Shown here: piece after piece, positions 1,368 to 53,449 of the stretch
Layout of the letters: every line of letters begins with the position of its first letter
Position numbering within the stretch: the first letter of the stretch is position 1
DNA from: an uncultured Flavobacteriaceae bacterium
Lineage (GTDB): Bacteria; Bacteroidota; Bacteroidia; Flavobacteriales; Weeksellaceae
Reading direction: 5' to 3'
Assembly (NCBI GenBank): GCA_963530295.1
Contig: CAUSCF010000003.1
Coordinates: forward strand, 77,747-141,746
Length of the DNA: 64,000 nt
Program-made: the position numbers and the translations under genes
The notes under the pieces: generated by a model
Database searches by the model: none
What the model saw: the letters and a program-made list of their open reading frames with translations, nothing else
Told to the model about the DNA's origin: nothing

Positions 1368-1952
1368 ATGTTTTTAGAAAATACAATCAATCACGCCAAA
1401 CAAAGCGGCTGGATGGAGGTTATCTGCGGTTCTATGTTTTCTGGAAAAACCGAGGAACTCATCAGAAGGCTCCGCCGTGCAGAGATGGCTGGACAGCAGG
1501 TAGAAATCTTCAAACCCAAGCTGGACAACCGCTATGCCGATGAAGAGGTGGTCTCTCACAACCAAAATAAAATAAAAAGCACTCCCGTAGAAACTCCCGA
1601 TGAGATTCTACTCCTTGGGTCTAACTGTGATGTGGTGGGCATAGATGAGGCGCAGTTTTTCGATGAAAGCATTGTAGAAATAGCCAATCAGCTGGCGAAC
1701 AACGGCGTTCGTGTGGTGATTGCTGGGCTGGATATGGACTACATGGGAAGGCCTTTCGGGCCGATGCCCAACCTGATGGCCACGGCAGAATATGTAACGA
1801 AAGTCCATGCCATCTGCAAGAAAACAGGGAACTTGGCCAATTATTCCATGAGAACCTCAGGGAGTGATGATTTGGTACAATTAGGAGAAACTGACAGCTA
1901 CGAGGCTGTGAGTAGAAAAGTTTTTACAGAAGAAGTTTTGAATAAAAAATAA
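1368..1952 (+). CDS. tdk: thymidine kinase
   Basis: 194 aa. P-loop GSMFSGKTEELIRR and IDEAQFF motif. Stop overlaps the next start (TAATG). Confidence 0.93.
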   Translation: MFLENTINHAKQSGWMEVICGSMFSGKTEELIRRLRRAEMAGQQVEIFKPKLDNRYADEEVVSHNQNKIKSTPVETPDEILLLGSNCDVVGIDEAQFFDESIVEIANQLANNGVRVVIAGLDMDYMGRPFGPMPNLMATAEYVTKVHAICKKTGNLANYSMRTSGSDDLVQLGETDSYEAVSRKVFTEEVLNKK

Positions 1953-4402
1953 TGATATACAGCACATTACAAATTTCGCAACTTACAGATTCTAAACTGA
2001 TTGGGAATCCTGATATTCTCATCAGCAATATCTCTTTTGACAGCCGAAATCTTTATTCTATTTCGGATACGGCGTTTATTGCCATTAACACCAAAAATAA
2101 TTCTGGCGAAAAATACATTTCTTCCGTAGTAGAAAAAGGTGTGAAAGTCATTATTTCTGAAAACTACTATCCTGAATACGAAGATATTACATGGATTATT
2201 ACCAAAAATTCCATTGAGTTTTTACAAATTTTAGCTAAAAAACATTTAGAAAATTCCCATTTAGAAAATACCATCGGCATTACAGGAAGCAACGGCAAAA
2301 CCATTGTAAAAGAATGGCTTTATCAGTGTCTTTGGGATGAATTTTCCACGGTGAAATCTCCCAAAAGTTTCAACTCGCAGATTGGGCTTCCTATTTCGCT
2401 GCTGCAAATCAATGAGGAACACCAGTTGGGAATCTTTGAAGTCGGAATTTCTAAACCGAGCGAAATGGCGAAATTGGAAAATATTTTCGCTCCGAAAATC
2501 GGCGTTTTGACGCACATCGGTTCTGCTCATTCTTCTAATTTTAAAAACGAAGAAGAACTGATAAACGAAAAAATCATTCTTTTCAAAGAAAGTGAAACTA
2601 TTATTTATAACGGAGATAATGAACTGGTTTATAATTTAGTAAATCAACTTTATTCAAGTAAAAATTTAATTAGTTTCGGACTAAATCAAAGAAATGATGT
2701 CCGCATTTTTTCCGATTATAAAAATCCTAATGAACGCATCGGGATAAAATATTTTGATGAAGAAATCAGTATTTCTCTCCAAAAACGAGATGAGGCTACA
2801 CTTTCCAATATTCTGGCGATTGTAGCGGTTTTAAAATGGCTGAAAATCTCCAATGAAAAAATCGTGACCAAAATCCAAGATCTGCATTCAGTAGAGATGC
2901 GTCTGGAGAGTGTGAACGGCATTAGAAATAATCTGATTATCAATGATTCCTTTAATCTGGATTTGGATTCGTTAATCATTGCATATCAGTTCATTAACCA
3001 ATATAAAAAGCAAAAAAAATCACTTATCCTTACAGATATTTTGGACACGATAGAAGAAGATGAAATTCTGTATAAAAAAGTAGCGGAACTTACCAACGAG
3101 CAGGATTTTGAAAATATCATTCTCATCGGAGAACACATCACGAAGTATAAAGATTTGTTTTCAGGGAAAGTTAAAATCTTTGATGATACTCAGGAACTTA
3201 TAGACAGCCAGTATCTCAATACAATTGAAAATCAGCTCATTTTATTAAAAGGAGCGAGAGTTTTTGAAATTGAAAAAATCAAAAAACTTTTAGAACTCCA
3301 AAAGCACGATACTACGCTTGAAGTAAATCTTAATGCCATCGTGCATAATATAAACATTCACAAGAGTTTACTGAAACCAGAGACAAAAGTCTGTGCGATG
3401 GTGAAAGCTTTTTCCTATGGACTGGGCGGCTACGAAATTGCCGAATTTTTACAGCACCACCACATTGATTATCTGGGAGTTGCCTATGCAGATGAGGGGG
3501 TTGATTTACGGAAAAACGGCGTCACTACACCTATCCTTGTGATGAATCCTGAGCAGAGCAGCTATGACACTATCATAGATTATCATCTAGAGCCTGAGAT
3601 ATACAGCCTGAGGGTTTTGGATTTATTTGGGAAACAGCTTCAAGCGAAAGGAATCCAAGAGACCTACCCTATCCATATCAAGATAGAAACAGGAATGCAT
3701 CGCCTTGGTTTTAAAGAAGATGAAATAGATGATTTGATTAATTCCTTGAAAAAATACAATGTCAAAATAGCGAGTATTTTCAGCCATTTATCTTGCGCAG
3801 ATGTTCCCGAAGAAAAGGAATATACACTGCACCAGCTGGAAACCTTTGAGCGAGTTTCAAATAAAATCATCCAAAACATTGATTATAAACCTATTAGACA
3901 TATTCTCAATACAGCGGGAATTATCAATTTCACTGATTATCAATACGATATGGTAAGAATAGGCATTGGGATGATGGGTATTTCCTGCGTTCCTCAAATA
4001 GAAAAACAGCTCCAAAATGTGGCTACATTTAAAACTGTGATATCTCAGATTTCCAAAGTAGAAAAAGGAGATTCCATAGGATACAGCAGAAAATACATCG
4101 CAGAGAAAGATACCAGAATCGCCACTATTCCGATAGGCTATGCGGATGGAATTCCTCGGCTGATAGGGAACAAAAAGGGATTTGTAATCATCAAAGGGCA
4201 GAAAGTTCCTATCGTAGGGAATGTGTGTATGGATATGCTCATGGCGGATTTGGGCGAAATTCCTGCAAAGGAAGGTGATGAAGTCATTATTTTTAATTCT
4301 TGCAAGACTTTGGAAGAGTTTGCAGACTATTGCCAGACTATTCCTTACGAGGTTCTTACTTCCATTTCACGAAGAGTCAAAAGAATTTATGTAAAAGATT
4401 GA
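1952..4402 (+). CDS. bifunctional UDP-N-acetylmuramoyl-tripeptide--D-alanyl-D-alanine ligase (MurF) / alanine racemase (Alr)
   Basis: 816 aa. N-terminal half has the Mur ligase P-loop GITGSNGKT. C-terminal half has the alanine racemase PLP motif AMVKAFSYGLG and the C-terminal GYADG...VCMD block. Confidence 0.9.
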   Translation: MIYSTLQISQLTDSKLIGNPDILISNISFDSRNLYSISDTAFIAINTKNNSGEKYISSVVEKGVKVIISENYYPEYEDITWIITKNSIEFLQILAKKHLENSHLENTIGITGSNGKTIVKEWLYQCLWDEFSTVKSPKSFNSQIGLPISLLQINEEHQLGIFEVGISKPSEMAKLENIFAPKIGVLTHIGSAHSSNFKNEEELINEKIILFKESETIIYNGDNELVYNLVNQLYSSKNLISFGLNQRNDVRIFSDYKNPNERIGIKYFDEEISISLQKRDEATLSNILAIVAVLKWLKISNEKIVTKIQDLHSVEMRLESVNGIRNNLIINDSFNLDLDSLIIAYQFINQYKKQKKSLILTDILDTIEEDEILYKKVAELTNEQDFENIILIGEHITKYKDLFSGKVKIFDDTQELIDSQYLNTIENQLILLKGARVFEIEKIKKLLELQKHDTTLEVNLNAIVHNINIHKSLLKPETKVCAMVKAFSYGLGGYEIAEFLQHHHIDYLGVAYADEGVDLRKNGVTTPILVMNPEQSSYDTIIDYHLEPEIYSLRVLDLFGKQLQAKGIQETYPIHIKIETGMHRLGFKEDEIDDLINSLKKYNVKIASIFSHLSCADVPEEKEYTLHQLETFERVSNKIIQNIDYKPIRHILNTAGIINFTDYQYDMVRIGIGMMGISCVPQIEKQLQNVATFKTVISQISKVEKGDSIGYSRKYIAEKDTRIATIPIGYADGIPRLIGNKKGFVIIKGQKVPIVGNVCMDMLMADLGEIPAKEGDEVIIFNSCKTLEEFADYCQTIPYEVLTSISRRVKRIYVKD

Positions 4403-4404
4403 TT

Positions 4405-6567
4405 ATGAAAAAGTTACTTCAAATATTTATAATAATGTTTTCTTTGACTTTGTATAAAGCTCAGGTAAAAGAAAACATGAAAATTCCGAAAAACCCAAAA
4501 ATAGGGCTTTCTCTGGCGGGCGGCGGCGCGAAAGGTTTTGCCCATGTAGGCGTATTGAAGGTGATAGACTCACTGGGAGTAAAAATAGACTACATCTCTG
4601 GAACCAGCATGGGAGCGATAGTTGGCGGGCTTTATGCATCGGGCTATTCGGCAAAGGAAATAGAAAAAATCATTAAAGAAACTGATTTTTACGAAATTCT
4701 TGCCAATGAAAAAGACCGAAAAGAAACCTCCTTTTTTGATAAAAATAATGACAAATATCTACTGAATATTCCTTTTGAAAAAGGTAAATTCAATGTCTTG
4801 CCAAAAGCCATTTCACAAGGACAAAAAAATCTTTTCCTCTTGAAGGATTTATTTAATAATGTTTCTAATGTCACAGATTTCTCCAAACTGAATATTCCAT
4901 TCATGTGCGTGGCAACCAATCTAGAAAATGGAAAAGTAAAAATTTTTGAAAAAGGAGATTTGGTGAATTCTATCATGGCGAGTTCTGCTTATCCTTCGCT
5001 GATAAATCCTGTGAAAGTAAATGACAGTCTGTATATAGATGGTGCGATGACAGTGAATTTTCCATCAAAACCTCTTAAAGATAAAGGTATGGACATCGTC
5101 ATCGGAGTGGATTTAAGCCTTCCTTTGGCGAATAAAGATGAACTAAATTCAGCTATAAAGATTTTAGACCAAGTGATAGATTTCACTATACAAAACGAAA
5201 ATAAAACTCAGTATAAAAATACAGATATAAGAATTCATCCTAATCTGAAAGGATATTCTTCCACAAGCTATGGCGACAAAGAAAAAATCCTAAATTTAGG
5301 ATATGAAGAAGCTAAAAAATACATTGATATACTCAATAAATTACCAAAAAGAGACTCTTTACCGAAAATGATGAGCAAACCTGTCTATGCTAATGTTTAT
5401 AAAGTAGACAGCCTTGTTTTGGTGAATAGCAGAATTTTTAATGAATCTTATGTAAAAGGGAAAATGAACCTTAAAATCCCTTCTCTGCAGACTTATGCTG
5501 GAATTAACCAAATGATTGATAAATTATACGCTACCAATAATTATAAACTTATCAATTATGACCTGATGCAGCATCAAGGGAAAAATATTTTAAAGCTGGA
5601 ATTAGAAGAAGATGATGTCCGATTTATGCTAAAATTTGGGCTTCATTATGATGAAGTTTTCAAAACAGGTTTATTAATAAATACAACCATCAGAAGATTT
5701 TTATTCCAAAACTCTATTCTCTCCCTTGATGCCATCGTGGGAGGAAATAAACCGAGGTATTATTTTAATTATTTTGTAGATAATGGCTACTTCCCTGGGT
5801 TTGGGATTTATTCTTCTGGGATGAGTCTACAGCTAAATGATGATAATAAAAATGAAATAGAAAAATGGAAATGGTTTAGAAATGAAATTTATCTTCAGTC
5901 TATTTGGAAAGATAGATATGCCATAGGAGGTGGAATGAGCCATGATTATTTTGAGTCTAAAATAGGAACTACCCGCTATGATAATGAAAAAAACTTTCTC
6001 AATCCTTATGTTTTCATTAAAAGTGATACAAGGAATGACAAGGATTTCTCATCAAGAGGTTTCTACCTTAATATAGAAGGAAAATTATTGGATATTTTTA
6101 ATAAAAAAATTGAAAAACAGATTTTCCAAACCAAAGCTGATATCCGAATGAGTTTTCCTATTTCCAGCCGTGTGACTTATAGGCTAAATCTTTTCGGAGG
6201 ATTTACTTTTGGGAAAGATGTTCCATACTATTATCATTTCTACCCTGGTGGAATTTTTGAACAGAATTTAGTCAATTTTGTAAGCTTCCAAGGCTACCAG
6301 TTTGGGAATTTTGGCACGGATAATCTTATTGTTGCTGGAAATGATTTTCAGTTTAGAATTAAGAAAAATTATTTCATCACAGGGCATGTTAATTTTATGA
6401 ATACCTTTGATGAGCATAAAATAAATCATATTCTAAAAGTGGGCGATGTTTCTGGCGGAATTACCGCTGGATACAAATCTCCTTTTGGGCAAATAAAACT
6501 AAATTACAGTAAAGCTGTGAATAAAGGAAAAGGAATTTTTAGTGTGATTTTAGGACATTGGTTCTAA
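4405..6567 (+). CDS. patatin-like phospholipase fused to an Omp85/surface-antigen-like C-terminal beta-barrel
   Basis: Start moved to ATG 4405 (MKKLLQIFIIMFSLTLYKAQ signal peptide); the 4300 start would overlap alr. Patatin motifs GGGAKGFAHVGVL and GTSMGA. C-terminal half is beta-rich and ends in aromatic ...GHWF. Confidence 0.85.
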   Translation: MKKLLQIFIIMFSLTLYKAQVKENMKIPKNPKIGLSLAGGGAKGFAHVGVLKVIDSLGVKIDYISGTSMGAIVGGLYASGYSAKEIEKIIKETDFYEILANEKDRKETSFFDKNNDKYLLNIPFEKGKFNVLPKAISQGQKNLFLLKDLFNNVSNVTDFSKLNIPFMCVATNLENGKVKIFEKGDLVNSIMASSAYPSLINPVKVNDSLYIDGAMTVNFPSKPLKDKGMDIVIGVDLSLPLANKDELNSAIKILDQVIDFTIQNENKTQYKNTDIRIHPNLKGYSSTSYGDKEKILNLGYEEAKKYIDILNKLPKRDSLPKMMSKPVYANVYKVDSLVLVNSRIFNESYVKGKMNLKIPSLQTYAGINQMIDKLYATNNYKLINYDLMQHQGKNILKLELEEDDVRFMLKFGLHYDEVFKTGLLINTTIRRFLFQNSILSLDAIVGGNKPRYYFNYFVDNGYFPGFGIYSSGMSLQLNDDNKNEIEKWKWFRNEIYLQSIWKDRYAIGGGMSHDYFESKIGTTRYDNEKNFLNPYVFIKSDTRNDKDFSSRGFYLNIEGKLLDIFNKKIEKQIFQTKADIRMSFPISSRVTYRLNLFGGFTFGKDVPYYYHFYPGGIFEQNLVNFVSFQGYQFGNFGTDNLIVAGNDFQFRIKKNYFITGHVNFMNTFDEHKINHILKVGDVSGGITAGYKSPFGQIKLNYSKAVNKGKGIFSVILGHWF

Positions 6568-23644: not shown

Positions 23645-25792
23645 ATGAAGAAAAAAAATAAATCACAAAAACAACAATACAAATTGGAGAGTATCGGAAG
23701 ACTCATTCTCCGATTTATGAATAAGAAAAATTCTAAAATATACAATTACAAACAGATAGCAGACGGCATAGACTACAAAAATCCGCGCCAGAGAGAACTG
23801 GTTATCCAGACTCTGCACAAACTGAGAGCCCAAGATAAAATAAAAGAAGTGGAAAAGGGCAAGTATATGGTAAACCTGCAGATAAAAGAGACGCTGACAG
23901 GAACGATAGATTTTGCGCTTAATGGAAATGCCTATGTAAGTGTGGAGGGACTGGACGAGGATATCTTCATCCATCAGAAAAATGTAAAAGATGCTTTGCA
24001 GGGCGATAAGGTCTTGATCATCACTTACAACTTCAAAGGGCGAAAGCTGGAAGGCTCTGTGTTAGAGGTTTTGGAGAGAGCCAAAGACTCTTTTGTGGGG
24101 ACATTTGAGTATGTGAAATATAAGGATTTCGGGTTTGTGATTTGTGATAAAAAGGTCATCAATACCGATATTTTCATTCCAAAATCTAAAATCAATGGAG
24201 CCAAAGACGGCGATAAAGTAGTCGTGAAGATGCTCCAATGGGACATTAATTCCAAAAACCCAGAAGGGGAAATCATCAAAGTATTAGGAAAGCCAGGCGA
24301 ACACGAAACGGAAATCCATTCCATCCTTGCCGAATATGAACTTCCCTACCATTTCCCTGAGGAAGTAGAGGATTTCGCAAATAAAATCAACCGAGAAATC
24401 ACTCCCGAAGAGCTGAAAAAAAGGAGAGATATGCGGGGGACACTCACTTTTACCATAGACCCGAAAGATGCCAAGGATTTTGATGATGCACTTTCGCTGA
24501 AAAAATTAGACAACGGAAATTGGGAAATAGGCGTACACATTGCCGATGTATCCCACTATGTGCAGCCAGGAACGCTTTTGGATGAAGAAGCATACAGCCG
24601 TGCGACTTCCGTTTATCTCGTGGATAGGGTAGTTCCCATGCTCCCAGAGATTCTCAGTAATGACCTCTGTTCGCTAAAGCCAAATGTGGATAGATACGCT
24701 TTTTCGGCGGTGTTTGAGATGAATGACAGGGCGGAGATAGTGAAACAGTGGTTTGGGCGTACAGTCATCCACTCTGACAGAAGATTCTCCTACGAAGAAG
24801 CCCAAGAGCGTATAGAAACAGGAAAAGGAGATTTGGCTGAGGAAATACTGGCATTAGACCACTTGGCGAAGATTCTCAGAAAAGATAGATTAAAGAAAGG
24901 AGCTATCGCCTTTGACCGCAGTGAGGTGAGATTTAACCTTGATGAAAATAATAATCCTATCGGAGTTTATTTTAAAATCAGTAAAGATTCTAACCACCTG
25001 ATAGAGGAGTTTATGCTGCTGGCAAACAGAAAAGTTTCCGAATATGTATCTCTTTCCAGAAAGGGCGAACCGACCCATAATACCTTTATTTATCGTATCC
25101 ACGATGACCCAGACCCAGCCAAACTGGAAGCACTGAGGGATTTCGTGCAGACACTCGGCTACAAAATGAATATTTCCAATTCCCAAAAAATAGCCGAAAG
25201 TATGAACAAACTCCTAAAAGATGTCGCAGGAAAAGGCGAGGAAAATATGGTGGAAACTTTGGCGATGAGAAGTATGAGCAAGGCAGTCTATTCTACCGAG
25301 AATATAGGGCACTACGGACTAGCATTCCCATATTATTCGCATTTTACTTCGCCTATTCGCCGTTATCCAGATTTGATGGCACATAGACTGCTCCAGCATT
25401 ATTTGGATGGTGGAAAATCGCCAAACAGAGAGGAATACGAAGAATACTGCAAACACTGCAGCGATAGGGAAAGGCTGGCTGCCAATGCAGAGCGGGACTC
25501 TATAAAATACATGCAGGTGAAGTTCATGGAAGATAAAGTAGGTCAGGATTTCACGGGGGTAATCTCGGGCGTGGCAGACTATGGTTTCTGGGTAGAAATA
25601 CCTGAAAACGGCGCCGAAGGCATGATAAAACTGAGAGACCTGATGGATGATTCCTACTTCCATGATTCGAAGGCGCATTCTATTGTCGGCACCAAGTCAG
25701 GCAAGACCTACCGCCTCGGTGATGAGATAAAAATACAAGTAGTAAAAGCCAACCTCATCCAGAAACAATTGGATTTTAAAATAGTAGAATAA
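23645..25792 (+). CDS. rnr: ribonuclease R
   Basis: 715 aa. RNB domain (DPKDAKDFDDA, HYGLAFPYYSHFTSPIRRYPD) and a C-terminal S1 domain. Confidence 0.95.
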   Translation: MKKKNKSQKQQYKLESIGRLILRFMNKKNSKIYNYKQIADGIDYKNPRQRELVIQTLHKLRAQDKIKEVEKGKYMVNLQIKETLTGTIDFALNGNAYVSVEGLDEDIFIHQKNVKDALQGDKVLIITYNFKGRKLEGSVLEVLERAKDSFVGTFEYVKYKDFGFVICDKKVINTDIFIPKSKINGAKDGDKVVVKMLQWDINSKNPEGEIIKVLGKPGEHETEIHSILAEYELPYHFPEEVEDFANKINREITPEELKKRRDMRGTLTFTIDPKDAKDFDDALSLKKLDNGNWEIGVHIADVSHYVQPGTLLDEEAYSRATSVYLVDRVVPMLPEILSNDLCSLKPNVDRYAFSAVFEMNDRAEIVKQWFGRTVIHSDRRFSYEEAQERIETGKGDLAEEILALDHLAKILRKDRLKKGAIAFDRSEVRFNLDENNNPIGVYFKISKDSNHLIEEFMLLANRKVSEYVSLSRKGEPTHNTFIYRIHDDPDPAKLEALRDFVQTLGYKMNISNSQKIAESMNKLLKDVAGKGEENMVETLAMRSMSKAVYSTENIGHYGLAFPYYSHFTSPIRRYPDLMAHRLLQHYLDGGKSPNREEYEEYCKHCSDRERLAANAERDSIKYMQVKFMEDKVGQDFTGVISGVADYGFWVEIPENGAEGMIKLRDLMDDSYFHDSKAHSIVGTKSGKTYRLGDEIKIQVVKANLIQKQLDFKIVE

Positions 25793-25800
25793 CAGCAATA

Positions 25801-25830
25801 AAAAACTCCCTTTTTTAGGGAGTTTTTTTA
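25801..25830. terminator. bidirectional terminator (rnr / array copy A)
   Basis: AAAAACTCCCT TTTTT AGGGAGTTTTTTT. Confidence 0.7.
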
Positions 25831-25832
25831 TG

Positions 25833-26729
25833 TTATTTGTTGTATTCTATTGTACGATAAGAATCGCTATTTTTATATTGTCCTGTAGCAGGATCTTTAG
25901 TTTTAAATTGTATTTTCGTAGGATAGTTGTTAGTGTTTAAAGTATATTCTACCATAGATTCTCTTGTATAATTACCATTCTGATAAGGGCTACCAGAATG
26001 ATAAAGAGTTTCGTTTATTTCTTTCTTTGCATAAGAAATAGGAAAGAATATATCATCGCTATCTTCTCCTCCAATTGCAACAGATGAATAATTAAGTTTA
26101 TCCATTCCTTTTATGTTTTCTATTAAACTATGATGATTTGCATATTGGTAAGTAGTAGTATTATTATTCGTCTTTTCAATAAGATTTCCTGTTGAGTCTC
26201 TCTCTTCAGAAACTTCTACTCTTTTTATTGGTCTTTTCTTTGCATCTAATGTGTAAGTGATGGTAGAAGTGGTTATAGAAGATAGAGTTCCGTCTCTATA
26301 ATCATAATTTTTAGATATCTTTTGTGCTGTTACAGTAGAACCATTGATAGTGTATGTTATATCATTTTCTGAAGTTTTAATAGTACCATCATAAAATTTT
26401 GTTTTTTCAGATATAAGGTTTCCATTAGAATCATAATTAAATACATAAGAACTTTCATTAGGATTATTCATAGAAGTGATTAAATCTCCTGTATAAGTGT
26501 AAATTACATCTTTGTTGTCATGAATAACTTTCATGAGCTTATTTCCATCATAACTAAAAGTAATTACTTTATCTGCTCTACCAGTTTGAGAATAGGTAGC
26601 TTTGGTTGGAAGAATTACTGTTTGGCTGATTGCAGGTGTCTGAGGTGTTGTAGGGTTTGTGTTGTCATTATCCCTGCTGCACGAAATAATCATCGCTCCC
26701 ACGAGAGCTGAAAATAAAATTTTTTTCAT
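25833..26729 (-). CDS. tandem-array lipoprotein, copy A (N-type alpha, middle type 1)
   Basis: 298 aa. MKKILFSALVGAMIISC lipobox, YD-like repeats, and the shared 152-aa C-terminal domain (one S-for-Y difference). Confidence 0.9.
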   Translation of the reverse strand: MKKILFSALVGAMIISCSRDNDNTNPTTPQTPAISQTVILPTKATYSQTGRADKVITFSYDGNKLMKVIHDNKDVIYTYTGDLITSMNNPNESSYVFNYDSNGNLISEKTKFYDGTIKTSENDITYTINGSTVTAQKISKNYDYRDGTLSSITTSTITYTLDAKKRPIKRVEVSEERDSTGNLIEKTNNNTTTYQYANHHSLIENIKGMDKLNYSSVAIGGEDSDDIFFPISYAKKEINETLYHSGSPYQNGNYTRESMVEYTLNTNNYPTKIQFKTKDPATGQYKNSDSYRTIEYNK

Positions 26730-26756
26730 TTTATATTGAATTTAAAATTAATTGAG

Positions 26757-26764
26757 CAAATATA
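26757..26764 (-). promoter_or_regulatory. candidate -7 box TATATTTG for copy A
   Basis: TAnnTTTG, about 30 nt upstream of the ATG. Confidence 0.45.
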
Positions 26765-26792
26765 AGAATAATATCTTTTACACTAAAAAGAG

Positions 26793-26819
26793 AAAACTCC
26801 CTAAAAAAGGGAGTTTTTT
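26793..26819 (-). terminator. terminator of copy B
   Basis: AACTCCC / GGGAGTT hairpin with flanking A/T runs. Confidence 0.65.
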
Positions 26820-26822
26820 GTG

Positions 26823-27722
26823 TTATTTGTTGTATTCTATTGTACGATAATAATCACTATTTTTATATTGTCCTGTAGCAGGGTCTTTAGTTTTAAATTG
26901 TATTTTCGTAGGATAGTTGTTAGTGTTTAAAGTATATTCTACCATAGATTCTCTTGTATAATTACCATTCTGATAAGGGCTACCAGAATGATAAAGAGTT
27001 TCGTTTATTTCTTTCTTTGCATAAGAAATAGGAAAGAATATATCATCGCTATCTTCTCCTCCAATTGCAACAGATGAATAATTAAGTTTATCCATTCCTT
27101 TTATGTTTTCTATTAAACTATGATGATTTGCATATTGGTAAGTAGTAGTATTATTATTCGTCTTTTCAATAAGATTTCCTGTTGAGTCTCTCTCTTCAGA
27201 AACTTCTACTCTTTTTATTGGTCTTTTCTTTGCATCTAATGTGTAAGTGATGGTAGAAGTGGTTATAGAAGATAGAGTTCCAGTTATATCATTATAATTT
27301 TTAGATATCTTTTGTGCTGTTACAGTAGAACCATTGATGGTGTATGTTGTATTTTCTTCTAAAACTTTAATAGTACCATCATAAAATTCTCCTTTTTCAG
27401 AGATAAGGTTTCCATTAGAGTCATAATTAAATACATAAGAACCTCCATCAGGATTATTCATAGAAGTGATTAAATCTCCTGTATAAGTGTAAGTTTGATC
27501 TTTGTTGTTGTCATGAGTAGCTTTCACGAGCTTATTTCCATTATAAATTAAAGTAGATACTTCATCTGCTTTACCAGTTTTAGAAGAGGTAAGTTTGGTT
27601 GGAAGAATTCTTGTTTGGCTGATTGCAGGCGCCTGAGGCGTTGTAGGATTAGTGTTGTCATTATCCCTGCTACACGAAATCATCATCGCTCCCACGAGAG
27701 CTGAAAATAAAAGTTTTTTCAT
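26823..27722 (-). CDS. tandem-array lipoprotein, copy B (N-type beta, middle type 2)
   Basis: 299 aa. Protein is identical to copy D. Confidence 0.9.
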   Translation of the reverse strand: MKKLLFSALVGAMMISCSRDNDNTNPTTPQAPAISQTRILPTKLTSSKTGKADEVSTLIYNGNKLVKATHDNNKDQTYTYTGDLITSMNNPDGGSYVFNYDSNGNLISEKGEFYDGTIKVLEENTTYTINGSTVTAQKISKNYNDITGTLSSITTSTITYTLDAKKRPIKRVEVSEERDSTGNLIEKTNNNTTTYQYANHHSLIENIKGMDKLNYSSVAIGGEDSDDIFFPISYAKKEINETLYHSGSPYQNGNYTRESMVEYTLNTNNYPTKIQFKTKDPATGQYKNSDYYRTIEYNK

Positions 27723-27749
27723 TTTATATTGAATTTAAAATTAATTGGA

Positions 27750-27757
27750 CAAAGATA
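27750..27757 (-). promoter_or_regulatory. candidate -7 box TATCTTTG for copy B
   Basis: TAnnTTTG, about 30 nt upstream of the ATG. Confidence 0.45.
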
Positions 27758-27785
27758 AGAATAATATCTTTTACACTAAAAAGAG

Positions 27786-27812
27786 AAAACTCCCTAAAAA
27801 AGGGAGTTTTTT
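27786..27812 (-). terminator. terminator of copy C
   Basis: Same AACTCCC / GGGAGTT hairpin. Confidence 0.65.
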
Positions 27813-27815
27813 GTG

Positions 27816-28712
27816 TTATTTGTTGTATTCTATTGTACGATAATAATCACTATTTTTATATTGTCCTGTAGCAGGGTCTTTAGTTTTAAATTGTATTTTC
27901 GTAGGATAGTTGTTAGTGTTTAAAGTATATTCTACCATAGATTCTCTTGTATAATTACCATTCTGATAAGGGCTACCAGAATGATAAAGAGTTTCGTTTA
28001 TTTCTTTCTTTGCATAAGAAATAGGAAAGAATATATCATCGCTATCTTCTCCTCCAATTGCAACAGATGAATAATTAAGTTTATCCATTCCTTTTATGTT
28101 TTCTATTAAACTATGATGATTTGCATATTGGTAAGTAGTAGTATTATTATTCGTCTTTTCAATAAGATTTCCTGTTGAGTCTCTCTCTTCAGAAACTTCT
28201 ACTCTTTTTATTGGTCTTTTCTTTGCATCTAATGTGTAAGTGATGGTAGAAGTGGTTATAGAAGATAGAGTTCCAGTTATATCATTATAATTTTTAGATA
28301 TCTTTTGTGCTGTTACAGTAGAACCATTGATGGTGTATGTTGTATTTTCTTCTAAAACTTTAATGGTACCACTATAAGATTCTCCTTTTTCAGAGATAAG
28401 GTTTCCATTAGAATCATAATTAAATACATAATAACTTTCATTAGGATTATTCATAGAAGTAATTAAATCTCCTGTATAAGTGTAAATTACATCTTTGTTG
28501 TCATGAATAACTTTCATGAGCTTATTTCCATCATAACTAAAAGTAATTACTTTATCTGCTCTACCAGTTTGAGAATAGGTAGCTTTGGTTGGAAGAATTA
28601 CTGTTTGGCTGATTGCAGGTGTCTGAGGTGTTGTAGGGTTTGTGTTGTCATTATCCCTGCTGCACGAAATAATCATCGCTCCCACGAGAGCTGAAAATAA
28701 AATTTTTTTCAT
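27816..28712 (-). CDS. tandem-array lipoprotein, copy C (N-type alpha, middle type 2)
   Basis: 298 aa. The N-terminal ~94 aa equal copy A. The middle block resembles copies B and D. Confidence 0.9.
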   Translation of the reverse strand: MKKILFSALVGAMIISCSRDNDNTNPTTPQTPAISQTVILPTKATYSQTGRADKVITFSYDGNKLMKVIHDNKDVIYTYTGDLITSMNNPNESYYVFNYDSNGNLISEKGESYSGTIKVLEENTTYTINGSTVTAQKISKNYNDITGTLSSITTSTITYTLDAKKRPIKRVEVSEERDSTGNLIEKTNNNTTTYQYANHHSLIENIKGMDKLNYSSVAIGGEDSDDIFFPISYAKKEINETLYHSGSPYQNGNYTRESMVEYTLNTNNYPTKIQFKTKDPATGQYKNSDYYRTIEYNK

Positions 28713-28739
28713 TTTATATTGAATTTAAAATTAATTGAG

Positions 28740-28747
28740 CAAATATA
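28740..28747 (-). promoter_or_regulatory. candidate -7 box TATATTTG for copy C
   Basis: TAnnTTTG, about 30 nt upstream of the ATG. Confidence 0.45.
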
Positions 28748-28775
28748 AGAATAATATCTTTTACACTAAAAAGAG

Positions 28776-28802
28776 AAAACTCCCTAAAAAAGGGAGTTTT
28801 TT
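28776..28802 (-). terminator. terminator of copy D
   Basis: Same hairpin. Confidence 0.65.
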
Positions 28803-28805
28803 GTG

Positions 28806-29705
28806 TTATTTGTTGTATTCTATTGTACGATAATAATCACTATTTTTATATTGTCCTGTAGCAGGGTCTTTAGTTTTAAATTGTATTTTCGTAGGATAGT
28901 TGTTAGTGTTTAAAGTATATTCTACCATAGATTCTCTTGTATAATTACCATTCTGATAAGGGCTACCAGAATGATAAAGAGTTTCGTTTATTTCTTTCTT
29001 TGCATAAGAAATAGGAAAGAATATATCATCGCTATCTTCTCCTCCAATTGCAACAGATGAATAATTAAGTTTATCCATTCCTTTTATGTTTTCTATTAAA
29101 CTATGATGATTTGCATATTGGTAAGTAGTAGTATTATTATTCGTCTTTTCAATAAGATTTCCTGTTGAGTCTCTCTCTTCAGAAACTTCTACTCTTTTTA
29201 TTGGTCTTTTCTTTGCATCTAATGTGTAAGTGATGGTAGAAGTGGTTATAGAAGATAGAGTTCCAGTTATATCATTATAATTTTTAGATATCTTTTGTGC
29301 TGTTACAGTAGAACCATTGATGGTGTATGTTGTATTTTCTTCTAAAACTTTAATAGTACCATCATAAAATTCTCCTTTTTCAGAGATAAGGTTTCCATTA
29401 GAGTCATAATTAAATACATAAGAACCTCCATCAGGATTATTCATAGAAGTGATTAAATCTCCTGTATAAGTGTAAGTTTGATCTTTGTTGTTGTCATGAG
29501 TAGCTTTCACGAGCTTATTTCCATTATAAATTAAAGTAGATACTTCATCTGCTTTACCAGTTTTAGAAGAGGTAAGTTTGGTTGGAAGAATTCTTGTTTG
29601 GCTGATTGCAGGCGCCTGAGGCGTTGTAGGATTAGTGTTGTCATTATCCCTGCTACACGAAATCATCATCGCTCCCACGAGAGCTGAAAATAAAAGTTTT
29701 TTCAT
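28806..29705 (-). CDS. tandem-array lipoprotein, copy D (identical protein to copy B)
   Basis: 299 aa, identical to copy B. Confidence 0.9.
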   Translation of the reverse strand: MKKLLFSALVGAMMISCSRDNDNTNPTTPQAPAISQTRILPTKLTSSKTGKADEVSTLIYNGNKLVKATHDNNKDQTYTYTGDLITSMNNPDGGSYVFNYDSNGNLISEKGEFYDGTIKVLEENTTYTINGSTVTAQKISKNYNDITGTLSSITTSTITYTLDAKKRPIKRVEVSEERDSTGNLIEKTNNNTTTYQYANHHSLIENIKGMDKLNYSSVAIGGEDSDDIFFPISYAKKEINETLYHSGSPYQNGNYTRESMVEYTLNTNNYPTKIQFKTKDPATGQYKNSDYYRTIEYNK

Positions 29706-29732
29706 TTTATATTGAATTTAAAATTAATTGGA

Positions 29733-29740
29733 CAAAGATA
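29733..29740 (-). promoter_or_regulatory. candidate -7 box TATCTTTG for copy D
   Basis: TAnnTTTG, about 30 nt upstream of the ATG. Confidence 0.45.
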
Positions 29741-29768
29741 AGAATAATATCTTTTACACTAAAAAGAG

Positions 29769-29795
29769 AAAACTCCCTAAAAAAGGGAGTTTTTT
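29769..29795 (-). terminator. terminator of copy E
   Basis: Same hairpin. Confidence 0.65.
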
Positions 29796-29798
29796 GTG

Positions 29799-30701
29799 TT
29801 ATTTGTTGTATTCTATTGTACGATAATAATCACTATTTTTATATTGTCCTGTAGCAGGGTCTTTAGTTTTAAATTGTATTTTCGTAGGATAGTTGTTAGT
29901 GTTTAAAGTATATTCTACCATAGATTCTCTTGTATAATTACCATTCTGATAAGGGCTACCAGAATGATAAAGAGTTTCGTTTATTTCTTTCTTTGCATAA
30001 GAAATAGGAAAGAATATATCATCGCTATCTTCTCCTCCAATTGCAACAGATGAATAATTAAGTTTATCCATTCCTTTTATGTTTTCTATTAAACTATGAT
30101 GATTTGCATATTGGTAAGTAGTAGTATTATTATTCGTCTTTTCAATAAGATTTCCTGTTGAGTCTCTCTCTTCAGAAACTTCTACTCTTTTTATTGGTCT
30201 TTTCTTTGCATCTAATGTGTAAGTGATGGTAGAAGTGGTTATAGAAGATAGAGTTCCGTCTCTATAATCATAATTTTTAGATATCTTTTGTGCTGTTACA
30301 GTAGAACCATTGATAGTGTATGTTATATCATTTTCTGAAGTTTTAGTAGAATTACTAAATCTTTTTAATTTTTCAGATGTAAGATTACCATTAGAATCAT
30401 AACCAAATTCACTAGACATTTTACTATTTATAATAGAGGTAATTAAATTTCCATTATAACTAACATTAGATACATCTCCATCATTATGTATTAGTTTTGT
30501 TAGTTTTGTTCCATTGTATATGAAGGTTATTTCTGCACTTAGTTGGTTAGATCTATCATCATAATAAGAATACTTCACAGGAAGAATTCCTATTTCACTG
30601 GTTGCGGGTTTCTGAGGCGTTGTAGGATTTGTGTTGTCATTATCTCTGCTGCACGAAATAATCATCGCTCCCACGAGAGCTGAAAATAAAAGTTTTTTCA
30701 T
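29799..30701 (-). CDS. tandem-array lipoprotein, copy E (N-type gamma, middle type 1)
   Basis: 300 aa. Unique N-terminal block. The middle block KTSENDITY...YDYRDG is identical to copy A. Confidence 0.9.
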   Translation of the reverse strand: MKKLLFSALVGAMIISCSRDNDNTNPTTPQKPATSEIGILPVKYSYYDDRSNQLSAEITFIYNGTKLTKLIHNDGDVSNVSYNGNLITSIINSKMSSEFGYDSNGNLTSEKLKRFSNSTKTSENDITYTINGSTVTAQKISKNYDYRDGTLSSITTSTITYTLDAKKRPIKRVEVSEERDSTGNLIEKTNNNTTTYQYANHHSLIENIKGMDKLNYSSVAIGGEDSDDIFFPISYAKKEINETLYHSGSPYQNGNYTRESMVEYTLNTNNYPTKIQFKTKDPATGQYKNSDYYRTIEYNK

Positions 30702-30728
30702 TTTTTATTGAATTTAAAATTAGTTGGA

Positions 30729-30736
30729 CAAATATA
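30729..30736 (-). promoter_or_regulatory. candidate -7 box TATATTTG for copy E
   Basis: TAnnTTTG, about 30 nt upstream of the ATG. Confidence 0.45.
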
Positions 30737-30797
30737 ATGATTTTCATCTAAAAATAAATTCCGTATTTTTGGAGTTTCAATTAAGAATTCGCATCCT

Positions 30798-31475
30798 ATG
30801 ATAGAGCTTATTTTTTCTGCTGTCGGTTTGGGTTTTATGCTTAGTTTGGTATTTATCGGGCCTGTTTTCTTCCTTTTGGTGGAGACCAGCCTTTCGCGAG
30901 GGCCTCGGCATGCATTGGCGCTGGATTTGGGCGTGGTTTTTGCGGATATAGTGTGTATTGTGGCGGCGTATTTCAGCAGTCAGGACATTATCCACATCAT
31001 AGACCAATACCCGAGTTTTTATAGGATTTCCGCGCTTATTATCTTTGTTTATGGGATTTATATGATCGTTTCCAAAACCAGAATGCACATCGCAGGCGAG
31101 GAAAGACTCATCAACCAAAACTATCTGAAAACTTTTCTCAATGGTTTCCTGCTCAATATTCTGAACATTGGCGTGGTGCTTTTTTGGCTGGTAACCGTCA
31201 TTTTCATTAGAAAAAACTATCCTGACACGGGCAGATTTTTGCTTTATATCGGCTTGGTTATCGGGACATATCTTTTGATAGACTTGGCGAAAATCTACTT
31301 GGCGAAACAATTTCACAATAAACTCAACCAGCAGGTAGCCAATAAAATCCGAAAAGGTGTAGGTTTTATTCTGCTGGTTCTGAGCGTGTTTATTTTCCTT
31401 CAAAGTTTCAAATCCTTTAACCAACTGGACAAAAGATTAGAAGAAAAAGGCATCAAACGAGAAGAAATAAAATAA
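30798..31475 (+). CDS. LysE/RhtB family amino-acid exporter
   Basis: 225 aa, six TM segments. N-terminal GPVFFLLVETSLSRG motif. Confidence 0.75.
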   Translation: MIELIFSAVGLGFMLSLVFIGPVFFLLVETSLSRGPRHALALDLGVVFADIVCIVAAYFSSQDIIHIIDQYPSFYRISALIIFVYGIYMIVSKTRMHIAGEERLINQNYLKTFLNGFLLNILNIGVVLFWLVTVIFIRKNYPDTGRFLLYIGLVIGTYLLIDLAKIYLAKQFHNKLNQQVANKIRKGVGFILLVLSVFIFLQSFKSFNQLDKRLEEKGIKREEIK

Positions 31476-52139: not shown

Positions 52140-53449
52140 TTAAAAACGAAATTTACCCGAAATCTTACTAAAAACAGCCGCTGTTACGAAGACGACAAAT
52201 GAAGGGAGGAGCCATTCTAAGTTGTAATCGCTTAGCGGCAGATGTTCCTTCCAGTCGTATAGATGGTGCATTTCGGTTCCCATATTCCTTAAACTTGAAA
52301 TAAGTGAAAGCAAGGCCGTGGTCAAGATACTCATAATGTAAGGCAGCCGGCTGCTCACGAACTTTTCAAACAAAAGCACATATAAAATAAGCGTAAAGAC
52401 AATAGGGTAGATAAACAGCAAGATATGTATAGCGTAATCTATAATGCTGTCCACACTATTGATAGAAAGCACCGCCGAAATAAGAGAGCTTGCTATCACC
52501 CCTGTCTTATAGGAAATAAAGTTTTGAGTCAATTCTTCAAAAAAAGCCCCTACTGCCGAAGTCAGTGCAATAGCAGTCGTTAGACAAGCCAAAGCAATCG
52601 CTATGGCAATACTGATGCTTCCCCAGCGACCTAATATAGAATGTGAAATATGCAGCAGCAGATCCGTGCGGGAGACTTGTTTGCTCAGCGGATAAGCGGA
52701 TAATCAGTTACTGCTCCCAGATAAATAAGCCCGCCGTAGATAACCAGCAGACAAAGAGTAGAGACTGCTCCCGCGAAAAAGGTTACAGAAGTCCGCTCAT
52801 GGCGTTTAGTGTAGCCCTTGTCCGTTACCGCCCTGATGATGATGCCTGCAAATATCACCGAAGCCAAAACATCCAAAGTCTGGTAGCCTTCAGTAAAACC
52901 AAAAATAAAACTCTCGGCAGAAGTATGCGTGGCAGGTGTTTCAGCAGAGGGAGCTTGCAAAATGCCCAATACTATCAATAAAGCCAAAACAACCAAAAGA
53001 AAAGGCGTTAAAAATTTACCAATAATATCTACAATCTTTGACTTTGAAAGAGAAAGAGCCAGCACCAATCCAAAGAAAATCACAGCAAACACCTTTTTTG
53101 ACAAACTCGGAAATAAAGGTTCTATACCAACCTCAAATGTCGTAGCAGCAGTGCGCGGAATAGCTACCAAAGGGCCTATACATAGAATAACTAGTAAAGT
53201 AATAATTTTAATAAGCAGCGGATGTGTTTTCTGCCTTAAGTCCGTAAAGTTTGTACCTGCTTTCGCCACCATCAGCACCCCCAGAAAAGGAGCAATAATA
53301 GCTGTAATAAAAAAGCCAGCCAATGCTATCAGCCATTCACTTCCTGTCTCCAAACCTATAAAAGGAGGCAGAATAAGATTTCCAGCACCAAAAAACATCG
53401 CAAACAAGGCAAACCCAACCATAATAATAGTATTCAGCTTTGATTTCAT
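52140..53449 (-). pseudogene. brnQ: branched-chain amino acid transport system II carrier (BrnQ), frameshifted
   Basis: Two collinear ORFs (53449-52685 and 52592-52140). The N-terminus FGAGNLILPPFIG is typical of BrnQ. The frame is restored by removing one copy of an 8-bp duplication. Confidence 0.85.
52688..52703. repeat. perfect 8-bp tandem duplication GCGGATAA x2 inside brnQ
   Basis: Read directly: gcggataagcggataa. Confidence 0.95.

Follow-up and report, generated by a model that had tools for sequence, protein, structure and literature searches.

Results

Five tandem lipoprotein genes between rnr and a LysE-family gene

The DNA analyzed here (the window) is a stretch of 64,000 nucleotides from contig CAUSCF010000003.1 of an uncultured Flavobacteriaceae bacterium, and all coordinates below are positions within it. 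Between rnr and a gene encoding a LysE-family exporter, this 64-kb window carries five lipoprotein open reading frames (ORFs) of 298-300 aa each, arranged in tandem on the minus strand. These are copy A (25833-26729; 298 aa), which is the last gene and adjoins rnr, copy B (26823-27722; 299 aa), copy C (27816-28712; 298 aa), copy D (28806-29705; 299 aa) and copy E (29799-30701; 300 aa), which is the first gene and adjoins the LysE gene. Their start-to-start spacing is 990/993/990/993(996) bp. An earlier reading made from the sequence alone (the sequence-only reading) had given the same coordinates, strand, lengths and 990-996 bp period. The rnr gene (RNase R; 23645-25792, plus strand), whose syntenic orthologs carry the Pfam RNB and S1 domains, is convergent with the array, and the LysE gene (30798-31475, plus strand) is divergent from it. 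The GC content of the array was 0.29-0.30, as compared with 0.37-0.43 in the flanks, bearing out the impression that the array is richer in AT than its neighbors; it is also AT-rich in other strains.

The five copies form a patchwork of shared segments. Residues 148-299 are identical in copies B-E and 99.3% identical in copy A, which has a single Tyr to Ser change. At the DNA level, the last ~450 nt are common to all five copies, apart from three substitutions within the last ~70 nt of the copy A coding sequence (CDS). The sequence-only reading had thus described the shared 152-aa block and the Tyr to Ser change correctly, but had counted three nucleotide differences on top of that change where there are three in all. 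Copy B is an exact duplicate of copy D, the two units being 100% identical over all 993 bp. Copy A is composite, i.e., identical to copy C over the promoter and its 5' third, and to copy E in its mid-segment, where copy C instead equals B and D, with a 3' edge of its own. An A7 run was noted at codons 2-4 of copies A (26720-26726) and C (28703-28709), where B, D and E have A6. It is the sole homopolymer of at least 7 nt in the genes and is too short for a phase-variation tract.

Each gene is preceded by a promoter-like box and followed by a terminator-like hairpin. In every 93-nt spacer, a 10-12-bp AAAACTCCC/GGGAGTTTT hairpin with a T-run lies directly after the stop codon, and a TAnnTTTG box lies 27 nt before the ATG of each of the five copies. 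On the minus strand, the spacer leading from B to A (26730-26822) has its hairpin at 26793-26817 and a TATATTTG box at 26757-26764; the identical spacer from D to C (28713-28805) has its hairpin at 28776-28800 and box at 28740-28747. The spacer from C to B (27723-27815; hairpin 27786-27810) carries a TATCTTTG box at 27750-27757 and is identical to that from E to D (29706-29798; hairpin 29769-29793; box 29733-29740), such that two spacer variants alternate along the array. The promoter region of copy E (30702-30797, minus strand), divergent from the LysE gene, has a TATATTTG box at 30729-30736 and is conserved in all strains. The terminator after copy A (25800-25828, minus strand; -15.2 kcal/mol, z = -4.8) is bidirectional and shared with the convergent rnr gene. 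Terminator-like sites numbered 19 in the array region, as compared with 2.0±1.6 in shuffled sequence, and spacer folding z-scores ranged from -3.2 to -4.8. The position of the TAnnTTTG box is also retained before the divergent paralogs of other strains. The -7 box, the hairpin past every stop and the view that each copy has signals of its own, all proposed by the sequence-only reading, therefore hold for all five copies. From these signals, each gene would have a Bacteroidota-type promoter to itself, and its transcript would end at the hairpin that follows it.

The terminator stem AAAACTCCC/GGGAGTTTT is constant, while its 6-nt loop is found either way round (TTTTTT or AAAAAA, occasionally TTTATT or TAATAA). 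Loop orientation varies by spacer and by strain (window, L001, L010, L015, L017 and L018, where L numbers denote loci and scaffolds of other assemblies), and the loop of the hairpin at 25800-25828 is reversed relative to the four internal ones. It looks as if the palindrome has been inverted repeatedly, e.g., by template switching.

The locus is hypervariable and mosaic between strains

Searches with the array proteins returned 834 homologs at an E-value of 1e-3 or below, nearly all of them from human metagenome assemblies. After clustering at 50% identity, nine clusters had E-values below 1e-30; beyond these lay 240-290-aa proteins and large Rhs proteins. All genome matches were to uncultured oral metagenome-assembled genomes (MAGs) labeled "Flavobacteriaceae bacterium" or "Riemerella sp.". 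In 20+ loci, the family genes occupy the interval from LysE to rnr, and the flanks there share 93-98% identity with those of the window. Comparison of this interval in related strains, as proposed in the sequence-only reading, revealed arrays of one to five genes on one strand, with spacers of ~91-93 nt and varied cassette types. Five-gene arrays were found elsewhere in L001, L010 and L015.

Within these other arrays, paralogs were 29-100% identical in their N-terminal halves and 25-62% identical in their C-terminal halves (72% in one L010 pair). When the halves were typed at 80% identity, at least 12 types of N half and at least 17 types of C half were distinguished, occurring in many combinations. 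L001 reads N1C1, N2C5, N3C2, N4C6, N6C8 and L015 reads N1C3, N2C4, N2C5, N3C2, N5C7, while the window consists of N4C1 followed by four N1C1 genes, copy D among them. L008 (N1C1, N1C3) is the reverse of the window, with N halves that are 100% identical and C halves that are 60% identical. Family-wide, the variability of the C half equals or exceeds that of the N half, and the conserved columns are the hairpin-turn residues of the YD repeats. The "invariant 152-aa domain" paired with a variable half, as the window alone had suggested, is thus not a property of the family. Given that paralogs diverge in other arrays and that the pattern is reversed in L008, the homogeneous C halves of the window stem from a duplication or gene conversion that took place recently and in this strain only. 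Concerted evolution, which had been invoked to explain them, fits such a recent homogenization here and not the family as a whole.

Copy E is a chimera. Its residues 31-147 are 95-100% identical to L013.2 and L017.2, which are last-position paralogs of type 4, whereas its residues 148-299 are only 34-72% identical to these and 70-98% identical to type-1 genes. Moreover, along the shared C half a different relative becomes the closest roughly every 40 residues. From these comparisons, the locus is diversifying and mosaic at the population level. What stays constant is a junction block of ~220 nt, near-identical in all paralogs and strains, which runs from the final codons (TIEYNK) through the terminator and the promoter spacer into the CDS, taking in its first ~100 nt with the signal peptide and the C-S-R-D-N-D motif; the cassette bodies between junctions span ~770 nt.

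Some loci carry broken genes. The sole family gene of L020 (8001-8869) and of L022 (8001-8877) is interrupted by one or two frameshifts, and the fifth gene of L001 (13905-14645) is cut short by a premature stop codon, past which the TIEYNK end can still be read. If these breaks are not MAG consensus errors, the locus is therefore capable of decay. Members of the wider family, at 25-45% identity, were single-copy in the contexts seen, so the tandem layout is no property of the wider family. Near one such distant member, two adjacent unannotated genes (306 and 303 aa) lie on one strand at 12748-14742 of L027 and 12749-14743 of L028; this pair may represent another small tandem family in oral Flavobacteriaceae.

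The array genes evolve faster than their neighbors

The ratio of nonsynonymous to synonymous substitution rates (dN/dS) was 0.23-0.88 for the mature parts of ortholog groups across strains, i.e., 5-25 times the values obtained for the flanks. Four flanking genes had ratios of 0.03-0.075, indicative of strong purifying selection. Both immediate neighbors, described as core genes in the sequence-only reading, proved to be so constrained, with a dN/dS of 0.03 for rnr (93-96% nucleotide identity between strains) and for the LysE gene (96-98%). For the N half of copy B as compared with those of C and A, dN/dS reached 2.5-2.7, with few synonymous changes. Among paralogs within one array, the proportions of nonsynonymous (pN) and synonymous (pS) differences were 0.28-0.36 and 0.34-0.51, respectively, in the gene bodies, and 0.02-0.07 and 0.15-0.37 in the first 30 codons. 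The junction is conserved mainly by selection, with only a modest extra synonymous similarity.

The proteins are predicted to be tethered YD-repeat lipoproteins

The N terminus MKK-LLFSALVGAM-(M/I)IS-C, with the basic region, hydrophobic region and Cys-ending lipobox of a signal peptidase II (SpII) substrate, was found in all five copies, consistent with the common signal peptide MKK[IL]LFSALVGAM[IM]ISC read from the sequence, and Cys17 is invariant, including in 20 divergent members. Only two other lipoprotein candidates were present in the window. The residues C-S-R-D-N-D from Cys17 onward are conserved even in members that are 25-30% identical. We compared this motif, C-S-R-D-N-D-N, with the lipoprotein export signal of Capnocytophaga canimorsus, C-X-K-(D/E)2-X, in which polar or basic residues are followed by acidic ones (PMC5080379). 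In the array proteins, a basic residue stands at +3 and acidic residues stand, non-adjacent, at +4 and +6. Since a basic-acidic motif after the cysteine is combined with a long flexible tether, the sequence suggests that the protein is flipped outward and would display its variable sheet faces and loops on the cell surface.

The sequence-only reading had been unable to assign the protein to a named family. The Pfam RHS_repeat model (PF05593) matched copies A, B and E with 34.3, 30.7 and 23.2 bits, respectively, against a gathering score of 22, and was matched by 10 of the 20 family members. For the TIGR01643 YD-repeat model (cut-off 15.8 bits), copies A and B scored 20 and 21.8 bits, respectively, and copy E fell just below with 15.2. 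Searched against the PDB, the family profile found Rhs cores (7pq5, E-value 2.4e-9; 7q97; 8qja; 8qjb-d) and teneurin-like proteins. An AlphaFold2 model of copy B, built from a 20-sequence alignment (mean predicted local distance difference test 85.5; predicted template modeling (TM) score 0.78), has a disordered stretch at residues 1-35, comprising the signal peptide and an N/T/P-rich tether, followed by 16 long antiparallel strands that lengthen toward the C terminus, together with two short helices. Foldseek matched the model with a probability of 1.00 to the Rhs cores 8qjc (E-value 4e-8), 8uxt and 8qja, and also to teneurins and TcB/C; global TM-scores to the Rhs cores were low because these targets are 4-7 times longer. 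The best whole-chain match was 3tzg_A (E-value 5.7e-8; TMq 0.52; TMt 0.62), at a root-mean-square deviation (rmsd) of 6.1 A, while 4ghb gave TM-scores of 0.32-0.36 and a viral structure library yielded low-TM matches only. The family can therefore be placed, by its repeat-model scores and by the modeled resemblance to Rhs shells, in the YD-repeat class of beta-sheet folds.

3TZG (BVU_2266) and 4GHB (BACUNI_01323) are small Bacteroides "porin-like" lipoproteins whose structures come from structural genomics, and which we take to belong to the Pfam DUF4595 class. DUF4595 was not matched by copies A, B and E (E-value ≤ 1) or by any of the 20 members (E-value ≤ 0.1), and neither 3tzg nor 4ghb was found in the profile search of the PDB. 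With no member matching DUF4595, the relation to 3TZG/4GHB stands on fold alone. Features of a closed shell were likewise not seen, in that no further Pfam domain was detected, the chain comprises 299 aa and TIEYNK follows directly on the last strand. On the model, the protein thus consists of the SpII signal peptide, the C-S-R-D-N-D motif, a predicted disordered Pro/Thr tether of ~20 aa and a predicted curled YD/RHS sheet whose ~16 strands resemble a small section of an Rhs shell. The strand faces and loops are hypervariable, and the motifs at the hairpin turns (Y, G, D, N-G-N-L, Y-P) are conserved. In public records the proteins are unnamed, or bear only the label "hypothetical protein" in the case of a distant member, and literature searches for YD-repeat lipoproteins, for arrays in Bacteroidetes and for BVU_2266 returned nothing.

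A 1.8-kb exact repeat limits the resolution of copy number

The longest exact repeat in the array is a direct repeat of 1796 bp, at 26479-28274 and 28462-30257, with an offset of 1983 bp, i.e., two units. Tandem Repeats Finder reported no match in the window because the array period exceeds its 500-nt limit. Two independent human metagenome scaffolds, L023 and L024 (SAMEA10740274 and SAMEA110373790), were 99.6-99.7% identical to the window over 37705-28220, and reproduce the order LysE-E-D plus the first 492 nt of C. The tandem array is therefore real in this lineage. Both scaffolds, which come from different studies and samples, stop at the same base (28220), 54 nt into the re-entry of the repeat. 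Given that most homologs were found on contigs of 1-5 kb, the array breaks short-read metagenome assemblies systematically. The exact copy number (4, 5 or more) consequently rests on how the assembly resolved the 1796-bp repeat, and copy B is the copy whose existence depends on it. The simplest history for the window array is a recent two-unit (1983-bp) duplication together with short conversion tracts.

Gene content around the array

The rest of the window is taken up by housekeeping genes, including those for a Mur ligase/alanine racemase, MnmG, PGK, Rho, DsbD, an S66 peptidase, TsaB and TGT. The scanned ORFs of the window contained no recombinase, transposase, phage, secretion-system or toxin domain, and the syntenic loci no recombinase, transposase or phage domain, in line with what the sequence-only reading had reported for the neighborhood. 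No Rfam family was matched, nor was there any match with PADLOC, which covers phage defense only.

Further observations concern individual ORFs. A 215-aa antisense ORF (30777-31424, minus strand) lies inside the LysE gene and is called in its place in L001 and L024, so flank annotation is inconsistent between records. A 254-aa ORF (52685-53449, minus strand) matches only positions 4-250 of the 429-position Branch_AA_trans (BrnQ) model and may be a truncated or frameshifted transporter gene. The ORF at 1952-4402 (plus strand) encodes an 816-aa fusion of a Mur-ligase domain and an alanine racemase, and would be overlapped at its end by ~100 nt by the longest ORF (from the first in-frame TTG) of a patatin plus Omp85-type protein at 4300-6567 (plus strand).

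Discussion

The locus described here is a tandem array whose proteins fall into the YD-repeat fold class, and which between strains is hypervariable, mosaic and fast-evolving at the protein level. We consider it moderately probable that it is a strain-variable array of small outer-membrane YD-repeat lipoproteins, expressed as separate transcription units and most likely displayed at the cell surface in a binding or antigenic role. The product of each gene would be lipidated at Cys17 and carried to the outer membrane. Homologous recombination in the conserved junction blocks could then alter the number and order of copies and swap cassettes, and short gene-conversion tracts within the bodies would create chimeras. 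In this strain, the two-unit duplication of 1983 bp together with conversion may have led to five genes with one common C-terminal half. The diversity between strains would be kept by outside pressure, i.e., host antibody, phage, co-aggregation partners or the toxins of competitors, or else be tolerated since the genes are dispensable.

Several of our observations weigh against this reading. The C-S-R-D-N-D motif only resembles the export signal, having R for K and acidic residues that are not adjacent. The dN/dS values above 1 rest on few synonymous differences, the orthologs were grouped at ≥80% identity, which biases the divergence estimates, and the ratios below 1 seen in most comparisons suit relaxed constraint as well as diversifying selection. 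The frameshifted or truncated copies of L020, L022 and L001 imply that the genes are dispensable, and the exact copy number of the window (4, 5 or more) depends on the assembly. TAnnTTTG shows no enrichment over the full window (99 occurrences versus 84±9 expected), so that only its fixed position counts. Finally, no ligand, phage or toxin partner was identified. The roles put forward in the sequence-only reading, among them antigenic or receptor variation, decoys and an immunity array, are thus candidates. The evidence favors a variable surface protein only modestly, and it suggests no new kind of system but a family that evolves fast and is probably exposed at the surface.

The copy number and homogeneity of the window array may in part be products of assembly, the true array having four copies (E-D-C-A) or more than five if the assembler passed through one repeat cycle too many or too few; we regard this as unlikely, albeit a real prospect. 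Unit B equals unit D exactly, short reads cannot resolve the 1796-bp repeat, two short-read scaffolds from this lineage, independent of each other, both end 54 nt past the point of re-entry, and homologs lie mostly on 1-5 kb contigs; by our reasoning, an E-D-C-A path would also hold every distinct junction seen in the window. Against this, the 143.8-kb source contig crosses the whole array and reaches unique sequence at either end, A, C, D and E can be told apart from one another, and the arrays of L001, L010 and L015 each contain five distinct genes. Mis-assembly would, moreover, touch copy B only and leave the nature of the locus unaffected. Drift is another candidate, in which a dispensable family changes under relaxed constraint at a recombination-prone, AT-rich locus and the five copies reflect neutral or dosage-driven amplification. 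We think this improbable. While dN/dS is mostly 0.2-0.9, below 1, and pN/pS in the paralog bodies is ~0.7-0.8, with pseudogenized copies, single-copy strains and an AT-rich region pointing the same way, almost all of the ~60 genes have kept frames of ~300 codons intact although the proteins diverge by 50-70%. Strict conservation is also seen in the hairpin-turn motifs, the signal peptide, the motif after the Cys, the promoter box and the terminator; the fold is predicted with high confidence, and the locus is retained in every strain examined. Two further candidates were rejected. An integron cassette array was set aside on finding neither an attC-like site nor an intI integrase, but 25-nt terminator-type hairpins with a T-run and promoter-like boxes for each gene; and programmed phase variation on finding no invertase or recombinase in the scanned ORFs, no simple-sequence repeat, no silent cassettes and no homopolymer longer than 7 nt.

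In the main rival to the surface reading, which we hold to be somewhat less probable again, the proteins would be immunity lipoproteins of the outer membrane that face the periplasm, each neutralizing one variant of a periplasm-acting polymorphic toxin delivered by competitors (type VI secretion system (T6SS), Rhs or other). Strains would acquire and reshuffle immunity alleles in an arms race, much as in the orphan immunity or acquired interbacterial defense (AID) arrays of gut Bacteroidales. Gain, loss and mosaicism from strain to strain and fast evolution suit an arms race, the genes are tandem and separately promoted, and the closest small-protein fold is that of the Bacteroides "porin-like" class (3tzg, 4ghb). 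The literature offers a weak link between DUF4595 lipoproteins and T6SS immunity, in that one was proposed as a B. fragilis T6SS immunity protein by annotation only (PMC11854122). A lipoprotein immunity protein, Bti3, is on record in the periplasm and outer membrane (PMC13402684), and orphan immunity genes of Bacteroidales evolve rapidly (PMC12247911); neither of these two papers gave confirmation that Bti1 is a DUF4595 protein. However, the scanned ORFs of the 64-kb window and the syntenic flanks include no toxin, T6SS, Rhs or recombinase gene, the array is of a single family, unlike the AID arrays, and no member matches Pfam DUF4595. The acidic motif after the lipid-anchored Cys and the long tether point outward rather than to the periplasm, certain strains hold only a frameshifted copy, and 300 aa is large for an immunity protein. 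The least probable of the readings considered is a population-level exchange of cassettes. Here the ~220-bp junction would be a portable recombination handle with which oral Flavobacteriaceae exchange and re-sort "mini-Rhs" YD-sheet cassettes, whose products would counter phage receptor-binding proteins or contact-dependent toxins, either as decoys or shields at the surface or as immunity proteins.

Neither variable lipoprotein families in tandem nor small YD-repeat lipoproteins are new as kinds. The vsp/vlp/vsa loci of Mycoplasma and the vsp/vlp and vls loci of Borrelia consist of tandem lipoprotein paralogs with a highly conserved 5' region and signal peptide and divergent mature parts; recombination among members gives rise to chimeras, and repertoires differ by strain. 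The array is similar to these in that its ~220-nt junction is near-identical while the gene bodies are mostly 30-60% identical. It differs in lacking an invertase or recombinase, silent cassettes without promoters and a long promoter homopolymer, in that each copy has its own promoter-like box and terminator, in that variation is seen between strains, and in its fold, a YD sheet.

With Rhs T6SS effectors, Tc toxin BC and teneurins, the array proteins have in common the repeat motif (Y-D-x-x-G-N-L and similar) and a long antiparallel hairpin sheet, and Rhs cores were the leading matches of both the profile and the structure searches. In contrast to the Rhs and Tc shells, which exceed 700 residues, the array protein has ~260 structured residues and therefore cannot close a shell; it also lacks a plug, a C-terminal aspartyl-protease or toxin domain and any PAAR or VgrG link, and it is a lipoprotein with a signal peptide. 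3TZG and 4GHB, for which no function is known, are of similar size and from the same phylum, but the array family has no detectable sequence relation to them and the rmsd is 6 A. The orphan immunity and AID arrays of Bacteroidales resemble the locus as strain-variable sets of rapidly evolving small genes in human-associated Bacteroidota, some of which encode lipoproteins (PMC12247911, PMC13402684). In those arrays, however, unrelated families are mixed, mobile elements or recombinases adjoin and cognate effectors are identifiable, none of which was seen here. In the literature that we searched, no description was found of a hypervariable mosaic array of stand-alone YD-repeat lipoproteins.

This is a first description of a family so far annotated only as "hypothetical protein", consisting of small YD-repeat lipoproteins encoded at a hypervariable, mosaic tandem locus, in a lineage that is abundant but uncultured in the human oral cavity. 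Its hypervariability at the population level lies beyond what the window sequence alone could show. Since such arrays break short-read assemblies, array copy numbers in MAGs are not trustworthy. If the proteins are surface-exposed, the locus would be a ready strain marker and a candidate determinant of strain-level interactions in the oral cavity, for example antibody recognition, phage adsorption, co-aggregation or toxin resistance. The YD/RHS sheet could then serve as a stand-alone variable scaffold and not only as a toxin shell, and, should the cassette-exchange reading be true, the YD-repeat fold would have a role in defense, apart from toxin encapsulation, that has not been described before.

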